A DNA stretch of 6,769 nucleotides from a virus (IMGVR_UViG_2681813261_000024); one strand, 5' to 3'. Numbered from the stretch's first letter, positions 1 to 6,769 are shown. Made by a program: numbers and translations. The notes: generated by a model not told the origin, from the sequence alone.

Positions 1-33
1 CCTCAAAAACACCATCATACACTAAATCAGTAA

Positions 34-546
34 GTTGGCAGCATCACCGGGGGCGCAGACCCTGATTATGTTATCTGGGCGAAAGAAGTTCAGGGTATTA
101 ACCGTGCATGGACTTTCAGACACTGGAAAGGCACTGGAACGGTTGGCGTGATGGTGGCGACAAACGATCCGGAACGCCCGGCCCCGGATGAAAGCGTGAT
201 TAACGCAGTCAGGGACCACATCCTTCCTCTGGCACCTGTTGCCGGAAGCGGATTGTATGTATTCGGTGCCACAGAAAAAGTCATCCCGATGACGATTGCA
301 TTATCGAAAGACACACCGCAGATCAGGACTGCAATAAAAGCAGAGCTGAATGCACTGATGTTACGGGATGGTGTGCCAGAGGGGCGTATGTATCTGTCCA
401 GAATCAGTGAGGCCATCAGTTTGTCTGCTGGTGAAGTGGCCCACCGGTTAATCGTCCCTTCATCGGATATTGACCTGGGGGAGACCGAGCTTCCGGTGCT
501 CGGCGAGATCACCTGGCAGGCTTATGACCCGGCAAGGAGTAAATAA
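34..546 (+). CDS. Baseplate J-like protein (Mu gp47 / P2 gpJ family), C-terminal portion only; 5' end truncated or disrupted
   Basis: Frame-1 translation from nt 34 (VGSITGGADPDYVIWAKEVQGINRAWTF...) shows the GG..DY..WA..V.G..RAW motif typical of baseplate J proteins, recalled from memory. The first in-frame start is GTG 148, an in-frame TAA lies at 31-33, and the other two forward frames stop at 23-25 and 63-65. The stop TAA 544-546 overlaps the ATG of the next gene (TAATG), suggesting translational coupling. Confidence 0.6.
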   Translation, partial: VGSITGGADPDYVIWAKEVQGINRAWTFRHWKGTGTVGVMVATNDPERPAPDESVINAVRDHILPLAPVAGSGLYVFGATEKVIPMTIALSKDTPQIRTAIKAELNALMLRDGVPEGRMYLSRISEAISLSAGEVAHRLIVPSSDIDLGETELPVLGEITWQAYDPARSK

Positions 547-1136
547 TGGATTCGTTACAGGATGATTATACAAAGCTGCTGTACGGACTGATGCCGCCGG
601 GGCCTGCATGGTCAGATACCGACGGTGTACTTGACGGTCTGGCACCATCGCTTGTGCGTGTTCACCAGCGGGCTGATGAACTGGTGATTGAAATCGATCC
701 CGGTCAGTCCACAGAGCTGATTGAACGTTATGAAGAATTGTATGGTTTACCTGATTCCTGTTCCCCTGTCGGAACCCAGACATTACGCCAGCGTCAGCAA
801 CGTCTTGAAGCAAAAGCCAATGTGGCTGGTGGCATAAATGAGCAGTTCTTCCTGGATCAGCTTGAGGCGCTGGGATATACCGGCGTAACGATCGAACAGT
901 TCCAGCACTTGGATGCAAGCCCCGATCCGGAATGGGGAGATCGCTGGCGTTATTTCTGGCGTGTGACGTTGCCGATGGATGCCGGTGCTCAGTGGCAGAC
1001 ATGCACGGACGCCTGCAACACACCGATCCGGACGTGGGGGGATACGGTTGCGGAGTGCGTGATTAATAAATTATGTCCGTCACACACCGTCGTTTTATTT
1101 TCCTATCCAGATGAGGATGAAGATGCACAGGATTGA
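546..1136 (+). CDS. Phage baseplate/tail protein, Mu gp48 / e14 YmfQ-like (DUF2313 family, distant P2 gpI analogue)
   Basis: 196-aa ORF with an LMPPGPAW N-terminal motif and a GG....FF...LEALGY.....IEQF central motif resembling the YmfQ/gp48 family (from memory). It sits between the J-like gene and the tail fibre as in Mu-like baseplate modules, with a 1-nt start/stop overlap upstream. Confidence 0.65.
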   Translation: MDSLQDDYTKLLYGLMPPGPAWSDTDGVLDGLAPSLVRVHQRADELVIEIDPGQSTELIERYEELYGLPDSCSPVGTQTLRQRQQRLEAKANVAGGINEQFFLDQLEALGYTGVTIEQFQHLDASPDPEWGDRWRYFWRVTLPMDAGAQWQTCTDACNTPIRTWGDTVAECVINKLCPSHTVVLFSYPDEDEDAQD

Positions 1137-2163
1137 TACGCTGACTGCGGTAAAAGATAAGTTTGGTCCGGGTAAGAACGGATTTACTGACGGAAATCTT
1201 CGCACAGGACGTCTTGCTACCTGGCTGAACAGTGCCATGTGGAATGCCATTCAGGAGGAAATCTGTGGTGTCATTGAGAAGGCCGGGATAGAACTGAATA
1301 AAGAAGAACACGACCAGCTATATAAGGCTATATTATTGCTGGTGGGCGGTGCAATTAACGAAGAGGCATTGCTGATAAAAAATAACCTTTCGGATGTGGA
1401 AGACAGGGATGAGGCTGTTGAAAACCTCGGATTAAAACCCACGGTGGATAAGGCAAAAAATGCCGTTCAGCGTGATGGCGACACCATGACCGGAGAGCTG
1501 AAAATCCGTGGTGTTAATGCGCTGAGGATTTTCAACGAAGCTTTTGGCCTGATTTTTCGTCGTTCGGAAGAGTGCCTGCACCTTATTCCCACCAGTGAAG
1601 GTCAGGGGGAAAATGGCGATATTGGTCCCCTGCGCCCGTTCACCATTAATCTGCGGACGGGTGAAATATCCATGTCGCATAAAGTGTCTGTTGGCGGTGG
1701 TTCGCAGGTCAATGGTGCGCTGGGTATCGGCGTTCAGAACGCCCTGGGGGGGAATTCAATTGTTCTTGGTGATAATGACACCGGATTCAAACAGAATGGT
1801 GATGGCCTGCTGGATGTTTATGCCAATAGCGTGCATGTGTTGCGTTTTCAGAGTGGCAGTATCCAGAGTAATAAAGCTGTAAACGTTACAGGACGGGTAA
1901 CACCGTCAGACTACGGAAACTTTGATGCCCGTTACCAGCAGCGAAATGGTGGCGTGCAGGATGTGCGGTATGGTTATGAAATGTATTACACCCCCGGCAG
2001 TAACACCGTTTCGTGGACATTTCGCTCACCTTCGGGACACGGGCTGTCAGGGATATCGATATCGGATACCGGCCGTAACTCAGCGGATAACGTCAACGGC
2101 GTGTATTACCGACCGCTGCAAAAACTGATTAATGGCACCTGGTATAACGTAGCGAGTATTTAA
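1111..2163 (+). CDS. Tail fibre protein; C-terminal part resembles the P2 gpH receptor-binding region, with a distinct ~110-aa N-terminal anchoring domain
   Basis: 350-aa ORF. The C-terminus (NALGGNSIVLGDNDTGFKQNGDGLLDVYANS ... LINGTWYNVASI) closely matches the recalled P2 gpH C-terminus (NALGGSSIVLGDNDTGFKQNGDGILDVYANS ... INGTWYNVAQV). Start is ambiguous among ATG 1111, 1117 and 1123; 1123 has the best AGGA spacing. It overlaps the end of the upstream gene. Confidence 0.8.
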   Translation: MRMKMHRIDTLTAVKDKFGPGKNGFTDGNLRTGRLATWLNSAMWNAIQEEICGVIEKAGIELNKEEHDQLYKAILLLVGGAINEEALLIKNNLSDVEDRDEAVENLGLKPTVDKAKNAVQRDGDTMTGELKIRGVNALRIFNEAFGLIFRRSEECLHLIPTSEGQGENGDIGPLRPFTINLRTGEISMSHKVSVGGGSQVNGALGIGVQNALGGNSIVLGDNDTGFKQNGDGLLDVYANSVHVLRFQSGSIQSNKAVNVTGRVTPSDYGNFDARYQQRNGGVQDVRYGYEMYYTPGSNTVSWTFRSPSGHGLSGISISDTGRNSADNVNGVYYRPLQKLINGTWYNVASI

Positions 2164-2165
2164 CA

Positions 2166-2711
2166 ATGTTGCATTTAAAAAATATTACGGCAGGTAATCC
2201 GAAAACCGCGGAATAATATCAGCTGACAAAACAGTATGATGTCACCTGGCTTTTTTCGGAAGACGGCAAAAACTGGTATGAAGAACAGAAGAACTTTGCC
2301 AGTGACACCATAAAAATGGTTTACACCGGAGACGGGCGCGTGGTGTGGGTCGGTAAGGATGTGACAGGCATTGAACCCCGTAACGCCAGTGTTATTGAAG
2401 TTCCTGATATTACCGCCAACCGCCGCATTACCGCGCCGGGTTACTGGTTTTACCGCAATGATGAATTTGTCTTTGACTACAGACTCAAAGCGGAAGATGA
2501 GCGTGATGCCCTTCTGGCTCAGGTCAGTGCCCGGACAGGGGAATGGGAAGAAGACCTGCTGCTGGGGCTAATCAGCGACGAAGACCGGGAAAAACTGAAA
2601 GCGTACCGTATTTACGCGAAATCGCTGCAGGCGATGGATTTCAGCACCATCACTGATAAATCCTCATATAACGCCATTGAATGGTCCGTCTCTCCGGAAG
2701 GTTCTTCCTGA
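2166..2711 (+). pseudogene. Tail fibre assembly protein (P2 gpG / Mu gpU family) interrupted by an in-frame TAA at 2214-2216; the longest intact ORF is 2316-2711
   Basis: Translation from ATG 2166 reads [43 protein letters not shown]..., colinear with the recalled P2 gpG N-terminus ([22 protein letters not shown]...DGKNWYEE). The stop replaces the conserved Gln (CAA to TAA). The same frame continues to TGA 2709-2711, and VEVPDITANRR plus a Tfa-like C-terminus are present. Confidence 0.7.
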
Positions 2712-2734: not shown

Positions 2735-4003
2735 ATGTCTGTAGTGATATCAGGTGCGCTGACTGATGGCGCAGGCATCCCCATGTCCGGATGCCAGATT
2801 ATTCTGAAATCCCGTGTAAACACCTCAGAAGTGGTGATGCGTACCAGGGCTGATGTAGTGACCGGAAATAACGGTGAATATTCGTTTGAGGCACAGGTCG
2901 GAAAATATTGCGTGTATCTGAAACGGGACTGGCGCGACGAGTACTGTGTTGGCGACATTGCTGTATACGACGACTCAAAGCCCGGCACGCTGAATGACTT
3001 TCTGATTGCTCCTGATGAGGGCGACCTGAAACCGGATGTCGTCAAACGCTTTGAGGAAATGGTGGCGCAGGCGCAGCAGAGCGCCGGGGCCGCAGCCGGA
3101 AACGCACAGCAGACGGCGCAGGATGTGGCGGCAGCCGCAGGTTATGCCCGCGCAGCAGAGCAGGCCAAAAATGACATTGATGCTGCGCTGACCGGCACTC
3201 TGAAAACGGCTAACCATCTGTCTGAAATCGCAGCAGCAGGCGAAAAGGCACAACAGAAGTCCCGGGATAATCTGGGGCTGAAAAGTGCGGCCACGATGGA
3301 AGCACAGAGCGACATTTACGACCGGACAAAAGGCCGTCTGGCGATACCCGGCGCATTCGGCTTTGGGTGTGCTTTTCTGCCTGAAGATGTTATCCGTTTT
3401 GACACTAAGAGTGATTTCCTGGCCTGGGTAAGGAATGCGCTGCCAGGTGAATATTCCGTTGCTGGCCCCTACGACATCATCATACCCGACACACGGTTTG
3501 AAGGGGTGCTCAGCATCCGGTGGACTGATGCACGCCCTGAGACAACAGAACCGAGGTACAGAGCCAAATCCCTTACTTTTTACGGCATTAACGGCCCCAT
3601 TTATCACACCCGCTACTGCTACTGGCCCATATCCAGACTGACTGGCTGGGTGAAAATAAATATAACCACAGAAGATATTATTTACAGAATCGTGGCGAGC
3701 TCTGTCTGCAACAGATGGGGAGACCCTGACATTGGCGGGCTGATTATTGCTGCGTACCAGGGAGAAGCTGACGGTGATAAAGTCATCAGACTTGTCAGGG
3801 GGCAGTCATACAGAGGCTCACGACTGGGACCGGTGGGGATTTCAGTGCCCAGTACTCCCACCGGAACGTATATAGCATCCCCACAATTTTTCATTACGGG
3901 ATGTTCAGAGCATTCATTACCGGGGTCATATAGCGCCCTGTCCGGGGTGCCGGATGCTCATGTCTCTGGCGCAATGCCCGGGCTTTTTATTCGCACATCG
4001 TGA
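2735..4003 (+). CDS. Side tail fibre protein with lambda Stf-like N-terminal domain, Ala/Gln-rich shaft and unrecognised C-terminal domain
   Basis: 422-aa ORF. The N-terminus (MSVVISGALTDGAGIPMSGCQIILKSR...GEYSF...GKYCVYL...IAVYDDSKPGTLNDFLIA) follows the lambda Stf / StfR pattern (MAVKISGVLKDG...CTIQLKA...VYEDSQPGTLNDFL, from memory). An Ala/Gln-rich low-complexity stretch follows, then a C-terminal ~230 aa with no family I recognise. Confidence 0.75.
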   Translation: MSVVISGALTDGAGIPMSGCQIILKSRVNTSEVVMRTRADVVTGNNGEYSFEAQVGKYCVYLKRDWRDEYCVGDIAVYDDSKPGTLNDFLIAPDEGDLKPDVVKRFEEMVAQAQQSAGAAAGNAQQTAQDVAAAAGYARAAEQAKNDIDAALTGTLKTANHLSEIAAAGEKAQQKSRDNLGLKSAATMEAQSDIYDRTKGRLAIPGAFGFGCAFLPEDVIRFDTKSDFLAWVRNALPGEYSVAGPYDIIIPDTRFEGVLSIRWTDARPETTEPRYRAKSLTFYGINGPIYHTRYCYWPISRLTGWVKINITTEDIIYRIVASSVCNRWGDPDIGGLIIAAYQGEADGDKVIRLVRGQSYRGSRLGPVGISVPSTPTGTYIASPQFFITGCSEHSLPGSYSALSGVPDAHVSGAMPGLFIRTS

Positions 4004-4013
4004 GGAATGCACC

Positions 4014-4520
4014 GTGGAAATTAAAAAAATCATTAATCCCCGTTATACCGAAAGTGGCGCAGTAGACTGTGACGTTTTTTTTGACGACAGGGACCAGGCA
4101 GTCCCCTACACAGCCACCGCTGATGATGTCGCACCGACGGGTCAGCGAATCTGGCAGGAACTGCAAAGTGGCAAATGGGGTGAGATAGCCCCATTCACTG
4201 TGACACCAGAAATGCTGGAAGCGGCCAGAGAGGCCAGACGTCAGGAAATTGAAGCATGGCGCACAGAACAGGAGGCGAAGCCGTTCACGTTTGAATGGAA
4301 CGGTCGTATCTGGAATGCTGGCCCCNNNNNNNNNNNNNNNNNNGATGCCGATAATCAGCAGGTGAAACTGTCGATGCCGGAACTGGAAGAACTGGCGGCA
4401 GCAATGGTGCAGGCGCAGGTCGATCGCAACGATGAGATTTATCGCCGTCAGCGTGAAATGAAAGAGGAGCTGAGTGGTCTGGAGGATTTGGGAACAATTA
4501 GAGCGTTTGATGTTACGTAA
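4014..4520 (+). CDS. Putative tail fibre assembly/chaperone protein (non-canonical); contains an 18-N gap
   Basis: The ORF lies immediately downstream of the fibre gene in the same frame as track ORF 3954-4520. GTG 4014 is preceded by GAGGA (4002-4006) and avoids a 50-nt overlap, so it is my preferred start; ATG 3954 and 3960 are alternatives. The assignment is positional, since the sequence lacks the classic Tfa C-terminal motif. Confidence 0.45.
   Translation: MEIKKIINPRYTESGAVDCDVFFDDRDQAVPYTATADDVAPTGQRIWQELQSGKWGEIAPFTVTPEMLEAAREARRQEIEAWRTEQEAKPFTFEWNGRIWNAGPXXXXXXDADNQQVKLSMPELEELAAAMVQAQVDRNDEIYRRQREMKEELSGLEDLGTIRAFDVT
4326..4343. other. Run of 18 ambiguous bases (N), an assembly gap or masked bases inside the putative chaperone gene
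   Basis: Directly visible as n x18; the length is a multiple of 3 so the frame is preserved and the track shows XXXXXX. Confidence 0.95.
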
Positions 4521-4566
4521 TTGGTAAGCTGCATCGTGTTAAATTGTTACCCTTATTTACAACTAG

Positions 4567-4600
4567 AAAAGCCTCTGACTTCATAATCAGAGGCTTTTTT
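4567..4600. terminator. Bidirectional rho-independent terminator between the phage tail operon (+) and ssrA (-)
   Basis: AAAA, then GCCTCTGA (4571-4578), loop CTTCATAA, TCAGAGGC (4587-4594), then TTTTTT (4595-4600): a perfect 8-bp stem flanked by an A-run and a T-run, so it can act on either strand. Confidence 0.6.
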
Positions 4601-4718
4601 GAAATGCACGTGCATTTTGCGTGTATATTTTTGTCTTTTTCTGGTCCGCTTACTGTCTGGTCAGTGTCCGTAAGTGACTGTTTTTATAGTCTCTGTCCGG
4701 TTGCAGTCCTGTCAAAAG

Positions 4719-5081
4719 TGGTGGAGCTGGCGGGAGTTGAACCCGCGTCCGAAATTCCTACATCCTCGGTACTACATGCTTAGTCAGTCTTTACATTCGC
4801 TTGCCAGCTGCGGACGGACACGCCACTAACAAACTAGCCTGATTAAGTTTTAACGCTTCAACCCCAGGCAGGGCTTCCACGCGATCTCTTTTGGGTTTGA
4901 CCTCTCTTGATCCCCGTCCTAAGAGCGGAGGCTAGGGAGAGAGGGCTCTAAGCAGGTTATTAAGCTGCTAAAGCGTAGTTTTCGTCGTTTGCGACTATTT
5001 TTTGCGGCTTTTTACGAGGCCAACCGCCCCTCGGCATGCACCTTGGGTTTCGCAAATCCCGTCGAATCCAGAATCAGCCCC
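4719..5081 (-). ncRNA. ssrA: tmRNA (SsrA, 10Sa RNA), 363 nt, apparently identical to the E. coli sequence
   Basis: The reverse complement begins GGGGCTGATTCTGGATTCGACGGGATTTGCGAAACCCAAGG and ends GGACGCGGGTTCAACTCCCGCCAGCTCCACCA. It contains the tag reading frame GCAAACGACGAAAACTACGCTTTAGCAGCTTAA (ANDENYALAA*), seen on the + strand as its complement at 4961-4993. Confidence 0.95.
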
Positions 5082-5295: not shown

Positions 5296-5778
5296 TTAAC
5301 GGTGGGCGTTTTTCATGATACGTGCTTTATCCACCTGCCATTCGCGTTCTTTGATATCTGAACGTTTATCGTGCTGTTTTTTACCTTTGGCGACGCCGAT
5401 TTTCACTTTGCACCAGGCATTTTTCCAGTACAGGGAGAGCGCCACTACGGTATAGCCTTCTCGATTGACGCGACCGTACAATGAGTCCAGTTCGCGCTGG
5501 TTGAGAAGTAACTTGCGGGTACGGGTAGGATCGCACACCACATGCGTGGAGGCCACGGCCATTGGCGTGATGTTAGCGCCAAACAGAAATGCCTCTCCGT
5601 CACGCAGAAGGACGTAGCTGTCGCTGATATTGGCTTTTCCTGCGCGCAGGGATTTAACTTCCCAGCCTTGCAGGGCAAGTCCCGCTTCGAACTCTTCTTC
5701 GATAAAGTATTCGTGACGGGCGCGCTTGTTAAGCGCGATGGTCGCTGAACCAGGTTTATGTGCTTTTTTCTTCGTCAT
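5296..5778 (-). CDS. smpB: SsrA-binding protein SmpB
   Basis: 160-aa ORF ([81 protein letters not shown]...[10 protein letters not shown]) matching E. coli SmpB as I recall it. It lies immediately upstream of ssrA on the same strand, the conserved arrangement. Confidence 0.95.
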
Positions 5779-6666: not shown

Positions 6667-6769
6667 CAGACAGAAAAAAGGTGCTCATTGAGCTAATGCC
6701 GATCAGTTAAGGATCAGTTGACCGATCCAGTGGCTGTGTAAGAATCCGGAAACGCTCACTTGTTTCCGG

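Follow-up and report, generated by a model that had tools for sequence, protein, structure and literature searches.

The window (the whole 6,769-nt stretch of DNA analysed) contains a phage tail module on the plus strand, followed on the minus strand by an intact ssrA gene and its chromosomal flank (Table 1). The tail genes run from the 3' part of a baseplate J gene, whose reading frame is open from position 49, where the homology to C311 and FDAARGOS_944 also begins, to a DUF4376 gene in which a masked N-run is found (4326-4343). The exact 422-aa protein encoded by the second tail fibre gene is named Shigella sonnei and is present on 674 contigs. The ssrA gene is full length (363 nt) with its CCA end at 4719, and is 100% identical to E. 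coli ssrA. Beyond it lie smpB, ratA and rnfH, in a flank that is 99.75% identical to E. coli. The sequence-only reading that preceded this analysis had described a tail module abutting an intact ssrA with no integrase in between, the two being separated by about 200 bp with only a terminator and short repeats. All of these elements were found where that reading had placed them. The spacer between the last tail gene and ssrA measures 198 bp (4521-4718) and is without a credible reading frame, and no integrase gene was detected in it or elsewhere in the window by an ORF and Pfam scan. The only spacer ORF of at least 40 aa (4544-4783) overlaps ssrA and was rejected as spurious.

Table 1. Features annotated in the window, with positions counted from its first nucleotide.
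Feature	Position	Strand	Remarks
IS1 end, terminal 48 nt, left window edge	1..48		interrupts the baseplate J gene
Baseplate J/gp47, 3' part, cut by IS1	49..546	+	Pfam Baseplate_J, profile 171-255 of 255
Mu gp48/YmfQ-like baseplate protein	546..1136	+	Pfam Phage_Mu_Gp48, E = 2.3e-25
Tail fibre protein	1111..2163	+	350-aa ORF; syntenic with the C311 'phage tail protein' gene
Tail fibre assembly protein	2316..2711	+	Pfam Caudo_TAP, E = 7e-21
Second tail fibre, prophage tail fibre N-terminal domain	2735..4003	+	Pfam phage_tail_N, E = 2.4e-63
DUF4376 protein, last gene of the tail module	3954..4520	+	Pfam DUF4376; TAA stop at 4518-4520
Short linker	4521..4542		outside the conserved arm; travels with the DUF4376 gene
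S arm, tail-side arm of the attachment site	4543..4718		analogous to the lambda P arm; read as joined to ssrA by integration
Two-way intrinsic terminator hairpin, predicted	4567..4598		arms 4567-4578 and 4587-4598
Motif A cluster	4602..4626	+	palindrome of ATGCAC and GTGCAT; GTGTAT at 4621
Motif B array (TGTCT, GGTCC, TGTCT, TGTCC)	4632..4669	+	starts at 4632, 4643, 4654 and 4665, exactly in 11-bp phase
Core-proximal motif B pair (TGTCC 4694, AGTCC 4705)	4694..4709	+	columns invariant in the alignments
Attachment core (identity block)	4716..4745	-	last 27 nt of ssrA and 3 nt past CCA
ssrA (tmRNA), intact	4719..5081	-	ARAGORN; Rfam 295.8 bits, model 1-374
smpB, chromosomal flank	5296..5778	-	Pfam
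IS4 end, right window edge	6694..6769		inserted after rnfH/yfjF; matches an annotated IS4-like transposase

Both edges of the window were found to be the ends of insertion sequences. The sequence at the left edge (cctcaaaaacaccatcatacactaaatcagtaagttggcagcatcacc) matches the IS1 inverted repeat. It is multi-copy, being found at a median of 10 and at most 68 places in an E. coli genome, and it occurs on plasmids too. In complete S. sonnei genomes, an IS1 transposase gene stands immediately to the left of the stretch that corresponds to the window, and the 5' part of the J gene is found on its far side. At the right edge the homology to E. coli ends at 6693, and the complete S. sonnei genomes continue with an IS4 transposase gene. 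With repeats at both borders, the window has the look of a draft contig. Its entire length is matched at 99.9-100% by complete S. sonnei genomes, where the locus was located in CP151357.1 (window start at about 928,217, reverse strand), CP022457.1 (about 99,807), CP060117.1 (about 3,953,179) and CP049163.1 (about 3,611,277), and about 75 nt stand in place of the 18-nt N-run of the window.

The prophage extends at least 7 kb left of the window in the 10-kb flanks of these genomes. IS1, the 5' part of J, gp46, gp45 and a baseplate protein gene are found there, and farther left the gene for a DNA circularisation protein, a second IS1 and the tape-measure gene. The IS1 in J is a simple insertion. 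By breaking up the baseplate gene it has damaged the prophage, which nevertheless continues past the window edge. To the right of IS4, the gene order in S. sonnei jumps to raiA-pheA.

The spacer contains a hairpin with a 12-bp stem that is 100% complementary, preceded by an A-run and followed by a T-run. Its folding energy is -20.6 kcal/mol on the plus strand and -19.7 kcal/mol on the minus strand (z = -6.5 and -6.1 respectively), with tails of TTTTTT on the plus strand and UUUUC on the minus strand, and four of the 12 pairs show compensatory changes across eight elements. The bidirectional terminator of the sequence-only reading thus stands as far as the hairpin is concerned, being stable, covarying and supplied with T-runs on both strands. 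From this structure we infer termination itself, so that the hairpin would end the tail operon on the plus strand and ssrA transcription, 121 nt past the CCA, on the minus strand. In the circular phage the hairpin is located downstream of int. A simple consensus terminator scanner left the hairpin at 4567-4598 unflagged, the likely cause being that the T-run is taken into the extended stem. The weak hairpins that the scanner flagged at 4604-4626 (z = -1.5) were not adopted.

Alignment of the elements that share the spacer gave a common block with a left boundary at about 4543 and a right boundary within ssrA. The part of this block outside ssrA, the S arm, is kept across nine elements with differing neighbour genes, including free phages and a Cronobacter phage. 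The arm adjoins a P2-like tail in the Stx2e prophage of cq9, a Mu-like tail in the same layout as the window in C311, the lambdoid J-lom-stf-tfa genes in WAT, dinI in UMNK88, CP-1639 and O157, and a dinI-like pseudogene with the effector genes espK and espN beyond it in 2013C-4538. The 22 bp of the linker (4521-4542) are common only to the elements that carry the DUF4376 gene (cq9, C311 and NY1601), and the other elements diverge here.

Two free phages place this arm within a complete attachment site. In the Escherichia phage LMessi, the order is tail fibre, arm, ssrA-like core and the 3' end of int on the opposite strand, the arm being 86% identical along the length of window 4543-4718. In the Cronobacter phage phiES15, the arm is 91% identical over at least 115 bp of the window arm. 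The circular record of this phage was opened at its annotated attP, which is the equivalent of window 4719, and it has the arm at its end and two cargo genes, int and xis at its start. Because the block 4543-4718 is contiguous with the core and int in these free phages, we read it as one arm of attP. In every phage record with the arm, the integrase shares at least 87% identity with the C311 integrase, and integrases of 68-70% identity to it accompany a diverged arm.

The integrase of the related prophages was found at the end away from ssrA. The prophage in C311 runs 43.6 kb from ssrA to a 41-bp repeat of window 4714-4754 (95% identity), with an integrase (PF12167 Arm-DNA-bind_2 and PF00589 Phage_integrase) and an excisionase just inside this far end. 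In cq9, window 4716-4745 is repeated perfectly over 30 bp next to the integrase, and the P4-type integrase of a second, tandem island comes after that repeat. The integrases of LMessi, cq9, C311 and phiES15 all contain PF12167. This integrase family is spread through the Enterobacteriaceae. The sequence-only reading had suggested a search of the genome beyond the left edge for an integrase and a direct repeat of the ssrA terminus. What was found there is a prophage that continues for at least 7 kb, and it is the relatives C311 and cq9 that provide the far-end core repeat with the integrase. No clean empty attB was obtained among the far junctions examined, which precede other islands or fossil arms. 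One E. coli genome carries a fossil phiNP-type arm after the far-end core.

The core itself corresponds to an attachment site known from another phage. The Citrobacter phage phiNP, a member of the same family, was shown by experiment to integrate in E. coli K-12 at a 25-bp site and to reconstitute ssrA (PMC6456863). This site (TGGTGGAGCTGGCGGGAGTTGAACC) is identical to window 4719-4743, which places a core of about 25 nt at the 3' terminus of ssrA in the window. The base at position 4746 is C in all eight of the ssrA-side junctions examined and T in all fourteen of the core-containing attP, far-end and inter-prophage junctions examined. Since this base separates the junction classes, the crossover lies on the CCA side of 4746, within 4716-4745. 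The T-loop (4735-4741) lies in the core, flanked by both halves of the T-stem, and is presumed to be the 7-bp overlap region. Symmetric halves around the overlap are the arrangement expected for the core of a tyrosine recombinase.

Both kinds of short repeat pointed out by the sequence-only reading were observed in the arm. The palindrome at 4602-4617 (AAATGCACGTGCATTT) is perfect over its 16 bp, although an 8+8 palindrome arises in 14.5% of whole-window dinucleotide shuffles and is not rare alone. The TGTCCG-like repeats are real and more regular than had been claimed, being units of the form kGTCy (k = G or T, y = C or T) that all lie on the plus strand, four of them (4632 to 4665) in exact 11-bp phase and a further one at 4694, with AGTCC at 4705. 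The GTGCAT at 4610 and the GTGTAT at 4621 are likewise 11 bp apart and in register with the kGTCy units. The longest 11-bp chains observed have four GTC units, or six units when both motifs are combined. Not even three units in a chain arose when the spacer was shuffled 20,000 times with its dinucleotides kept, a figure that overstates the significance because the motif was defined after inspection. Independent support for the array comes from its conservation in the sequences compared and from its recurrence on the other arm.

The arrays on both arms were read from LMessi, cq9, C311 and phiES15, and the window holds the tail-side arm only. Counted from the core start, units of the GTGCAT type stand at -115 (inverted), -109 and -98 of the tail-side arm in all four elements, and kGTCy units at -87, -65, -54 and -25. 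The unit at -76 is kGTCy in LMessi, phiES15 and the window, and AGTCC in cq9 and C311. On the integrase-side arm, GTGCAT-type units occur at about +87 and +98 without a palindrome (LMessi, C311 and phiES15), followed by GTCC units at about +109, +120 and +131, which are also in 11-bp phase and have the same orientation as those of the tail-side arm.

Phage phiNP shows a variant of this architecture. Its GTC units keep to -87, -76, -65, -25 and -14, and a GGCTCC/GTATCC type stands in for motif A on either arm. Its tail-side arm has a GGCTCC-type palindrome with a direct copy 11 bp on. A GGCTCC-type integrase-side arm was also found in the Klebsiella phage Kp4866-6 and in a second S. sonnei prophage, both of which have the phiNP type of Int N-domain and Xis. 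The type of motif A thus co-varies with the type of Int N-domain and Xis in seven elements, and this is what binding sites for the Int arm domain or for Xis would do. As int and xis travel together, either protein could be the one that reads a given motif. Comparison of these elements supports the arrays as candidate binding sites for Int, Xis or both, and the suggestion of the sequence-only reading that the repeats might bind proteins can be retained, as they are kept from E. coli to Cronobacter and recur on the integrase-side arm. Strict consensus scans found no IHF sites in the tail-side arm. A conserved sequence in the integrase-side arm (TAACCTATTGAAT) is one mismatch from the reverse complement of the IHF consensus, which hints weakly at an IHF site.

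On this evidence, we consider that the window very probably shows a phiP27/SfV-like prophage of Shigella sonnei, equipped with a Mu-like tail and inserted in the 3' end of ssrA, at its integrase-distal junction (attR in lambda terms). The attP of phages of this family consists, in order, of the tail or cargo end, an arm of about 176 bp, a 27-30-bp copy of the ssrA 3' end, a second arm, the 3' end of int, and xis. The integrase gene is transcribed toward the core and the core has the polarity of ssrA. With attP oriented in this way, integration fuses the tail-side arm to ssrA and leaves int and xis about 40 kb off. No gene is then missing between the tail and ssrA because these phages carry int at the other end. 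The proposal of an integrase-distal prophage end made from the sequence is in this respect corroborated, as the spacer adjoins ssrA in several prophages and the integrase with the core repeat is distal in C311 and cq9. The premise that had made the arrangement look unusual, namely that the integrase usually lies next to ssrA, is true of P4-like islands and not of the phiNP/phiES15 type of phage.

The phage would, on this model, supply at most the last 27 nt of ssrA, depending on the point of exchange, and everything downstream, including the hairpin. The 11-bp array, with its three GTGCAT-type units, four kGTCy units and two more beside the core, together with its equivalent on the integrase-side arm, would be the expected docking surface for the N-terminal arm-binding domain of Int, the excisionase, or both. 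The far end of the complete prophage would be predicted to read as a type-1 int/xis pair followed by ...CACGGGTTCAACTCCCGCCAGCTCCACCA.

The arm is also found where it has no part in a junction. The arm and about 27 nt of the core occur inside prophages that abut prfC (NY1601) and torT (1002W03), where they continue into other phage DNA. These copies indicate that the arm can survive as a relic without serving integration. They leave the reading of the window unchanged, as the arm here is joined to a complete ssrA as it is in functional phages. Lambda-type arm motifs were observed farther on in 1002W03.

The sequence-only reading had offered as its other possibility a remnant left after deletion, either with the integrase-proximal part lost beside ssrA or with the whole prophage decayed to an integrase-less stump. 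In keeping with this, there is an IS1 at window position 49 in J and a second IS1 between the tape-measure and DNA-circularisation genes, the S. sonnei genomes are IS-rich and rearranged, as in the jump to raiA-pheA past IS4, and the integrase of the prophage itself was not found in the 10-kb flanks or in the type-1 integrase clusters, where none of the members listed has a Shigella name. However, the junction equals, base for base, those of intact inducible phages and full prophages from 4543 to the core, and no deletion is required to account for it. The IS1 has merely inserted into J, the remainder of which follows on its other side. The integrase may have been lost at the far end, but such a loss would leave the junction unexplained. 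A deletion remnant is improbable in our view, and what survives of the suggestion is the damage to the prophage by IS1 at J and a possible loss at the far end.

The conservation of 4600-4718 might alternatively reflect an RNA function, with the region serving as the trailer 3' of tmRNA in its precursor, or giving rise to a small RNA, and not as protein-binding DNA. Transcription of this region is probable from its place between the terminator and the mature 3' end, a z of -5.0 was obtained for the minus-strand fold of 4560-4718, and a few predicted pairs keep pairing after two-sided changes. Most of the folding energy is, however, supplied by the terminator hairpin. The consensus fold without the hairpin has a covariation term of only -0.23 kcal/mol, and the tmRNA is the only Rfam match there. 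The phasing at 11 bp on one strand also argues for DNA, as do the motifs on the integrase-side arm, which is outside that transcript in the lysogen. We regard an RNA function as very unlikely.

An equally small chance is given to the palindrome being an independent element, such as the operator of a regulator or a restriction-type site, with no relation to recombination. It is perfect and lies right after the terminator, and dimeric regulators bind sites of this kind. Yet only its inner TGCACGTGCA is invariant, its right half is the first of two GTGCAT-type direct units that stand in the register of the GTC array, and this pair of units recurs without the palindrome on the integrase-side arm. 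In addition, phiNP keeps the layout of a palindrome and a direct copy with a different sequence, and an 8+8 palindrome arises in shuffled windows at the frequency given above.

The reading of the spacer as native chromosomal DNA 3' of ssrA, with the tail genes belonging to a more distant insertion, retains virtually no probability, for although the spacer comes straight after ssrA and includes the terminator of that gene, the arm is present in just 572 of 5426 complete E. coli genomes (about 10%) while ssrA is present in all, and the reading is refuted by the phage records, in which the arm lies beside int. The arm also occurs away from ssrA in the prfC and torT prophages.

Among the closest known counterparts of the prophage junction in the window are phiNP and phiES15, which are inducible phages that integrate in ssrA and have DUF3596/Arm-DNA-bind_2 integrases. 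They are alike in the core, in the layout of late or cargo end, arm, core, arm, int and xis, and in the distances of the kGTCy units from the core. Differences were observed in phiNP, which has the GGCTCC type of motif A and an integrase that is 68% identical to the type-1 integrases. The window for its part differs from both phages in that its prophage resides in S. sonnei, has a tail module of the Mu-like kind and bears IS insertions.

In CP-1639 (O111), in the O157:H7 ssrA prophage and in the phiP27-like Stx2e prophages, ssrA is joined to the arm and core in the same manner, with the late end facing ssrA. These Stx and effector prophages at ssrA have dinI, effector or stx cargo and other tails, and their arms are 78-94% identical to that of the window. 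In contrast to them, the tail gene of the window ends just 22 bp before the arm. ssrA is a published insertion site of Stx phages (PMC8065619; PMC10673567).

Comparison with lambda attP reveals a similar arrangement. In both, int points toward att, a long int-distal arm is paired with a shorter int-side arm, a hairpin is found beyond att, each arm has repeated motifs, and an arm-binding domain forms the N-terminus of the integrase. The lambda-like combination of a motif on both arms, helical phasing and an arm-binding Int is observed in LMessi, cq9, C311 and phiES15, at -109 to -54 on the tail-side arm and +87 to +131 on the integrase-side arm. However, the Int N-domain of the window family is PF12167, the core lies in a tmRNA gene, and the motif sequences are unrelated. 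Also unlike lambda, two motif classes are arrayed on both arms, and a sib-like role for the hairpin is an analogy only.

Two S. sonnei genomes (CP032523.1 and CP044191.1) contain a further junction of this type, in which the tail module of the window, with its arm, leads through a core to a second arm, and from there to two cargo genes, to int and xis, and to early genes. We rejected this junction as the attP of one phage or an assembled circle, as its arm types differ. Two tandem prophages fit better, because the tail side is of the GTGCAT type and the phiNP type is found in the integrase-side arm, in the Int N-domain and in Xis. A second prophage would lie in tandem between the first prophage and ssrA in these two genomes.

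The kind of junction seen in the window is already known, being ordinary for CP-1639, phiNP, phiES15 and the Stx and effector prophages. In the literature searched, arm sites for the ssrA attachment site of this family are undescribed, and the phased arm architecture with two motifs, together with its co-variation with the Int and Xis type, seems to be the new part. It is possible, though somewhat short of likely, that this represents an undescribed attP architecture of the PF12167/DUF3596 family of integrases acting at the ssrA T-loop, which is very widespread in enterobacteria, and that fossil half-sites (arm and core), left in the prfC and torT prophages and downstream of far junctions, mark a route of mosaicism and tandem polylysogeny. 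If so, the class of motif A would swap on both arms along with the Int N-domain and Xis while the core and catalytic domain stay fixed, and exchange at the ssrA core, either mediated by the integrase or guided by the core, would be a route by which prophages become mosaic and come to lie in tandem.

What appeared to be an anomaly is thus the normal geometry of these phages, which helps in annotating the ends of ssrA prophages in Escherichia and Shigella. The arrays with two motifs offer a ready target for footprinting the Int and Xis of the Stx and effector phages that use ssrA. As the stretch 4543-4745 supplies part of the last 27 nt of ssrA and its terminator, gain or loss of the prophage can alter tmRNA expression. 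For CP4-57, a different ssrA element, excision has been reported to leave a defective ssrA (PMC10107115).

Two other groups of elements use the same gene. P4-like islands of the CP4-57 type use the ssrA 3' end and can sit in tandem at a displaced copy of the core. In these islands the integrase gene (with a PF13356 arm domain) starts a transcript that leads away from the core copy, about 180-290 bp downstream of which it is located, and this downstream position is why they place int beside ssrA. Such a gene is absent from the window, as is any other integrase gene, and the prophage was not assigned to this group. The window was also found not to belong with the P2-like ssrA phages, as its tail genes are Mu/SfV-like. 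Fels-2, SopEPhi and RE2010, which are P2-like, match window 4719-4760 only and not the arm, with an identity to ssrA of at least 42 nt.

Two Shigella sonnei genomes, CP032523.1 (comparison locus L021, 11844-14860) and CP044191.1 (L025), carry the tail module of the window and its tail-side attachment-site arm, followed in order by the core (the block of identity to the ssrA 3' end), an arm of the variety found in Citrobacter phage phiNP rather than of the GTGCAT type seen in the window, two cargo genes, the integrase gene and the excisionase gene. This arrangement most likely represents two different ssrA phages in tandem, which implies that the junction of arm, core and ssrA is still usable as an attachment site. 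Earlier occupants of the ssrA site have also left arm fossils behind, as in an E. coli prophage (L034, 8652-8770) where the core repeat at the end away from ssrA is followed by a reversed relic of a phiNP-type tail-side arm and then by csiD. Upstream of its lysis genes, a related prophage at ssrA in E. coli cq9 (L002, 6037-7272) has stx2e together with three tRNA genes; Stx2e-converting phages therefore use this attachment module.

Copies of the arm, each with about 27 nt of ssrA-like core, were also found within prophages at prfC in E. coli NY1601 (L012, 3501-3800) and at torT in E. coli 1002W03 (L013, 3501-3800). Both copies end at the T-stem and are followed by a 120-bp segment common to the two prophages, after which the lambda-type arm motifs CAGGTCACTAAT and CATAGTGACTGG occur in 1002W03. 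The arm-core copies look like fossil half-attachment sites that remained after modules were exchanged at the core. The 120-bp segment itself (L012, 3693-3800) is multi-copy, with matches in 5412 of the 5426 E. coli genomes at a median of three places, frequently close to dinI-like genes.

Insertion-sequence ends were observed at both edges of the window, which appears to be a draft contig of S. sonnei with repeats at its edges. In complete genomes, the region beyond IS4 is raiA-pheA instead of bamE-recN, which indicates a rearrangement.

Features noted in the window
Feature	Position	Context
IS1 end	1-48	interrupts baseplate J gene
Replaced segment, 34 nt in place of 202 nt	1857-1890	end of first fibre gene (compared with FDAARGOS_944)
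N-run, 18 nt	4326-4343	within DUF4376 gene
IS4 end	6694-6769	located after rnfH/yfjF

The tail module closest to that of the window is found in E. coli FDAARGOS_944, where it adjoins an ipaH gene. Besides the replacement in the first fibre gene, the two differ in the next gene, an assembly gene, which encodes 131 aa in the window and 181 aa in FDAARGOS_944; these changes could reflect either mosaic variation or decay. The counterpart of the N-run is about 75 nt long in FDAARGOS_944 and in complete S. sonnei genomes, the latter being identical elsewhere, and the true length is therefore not preserved by the run.
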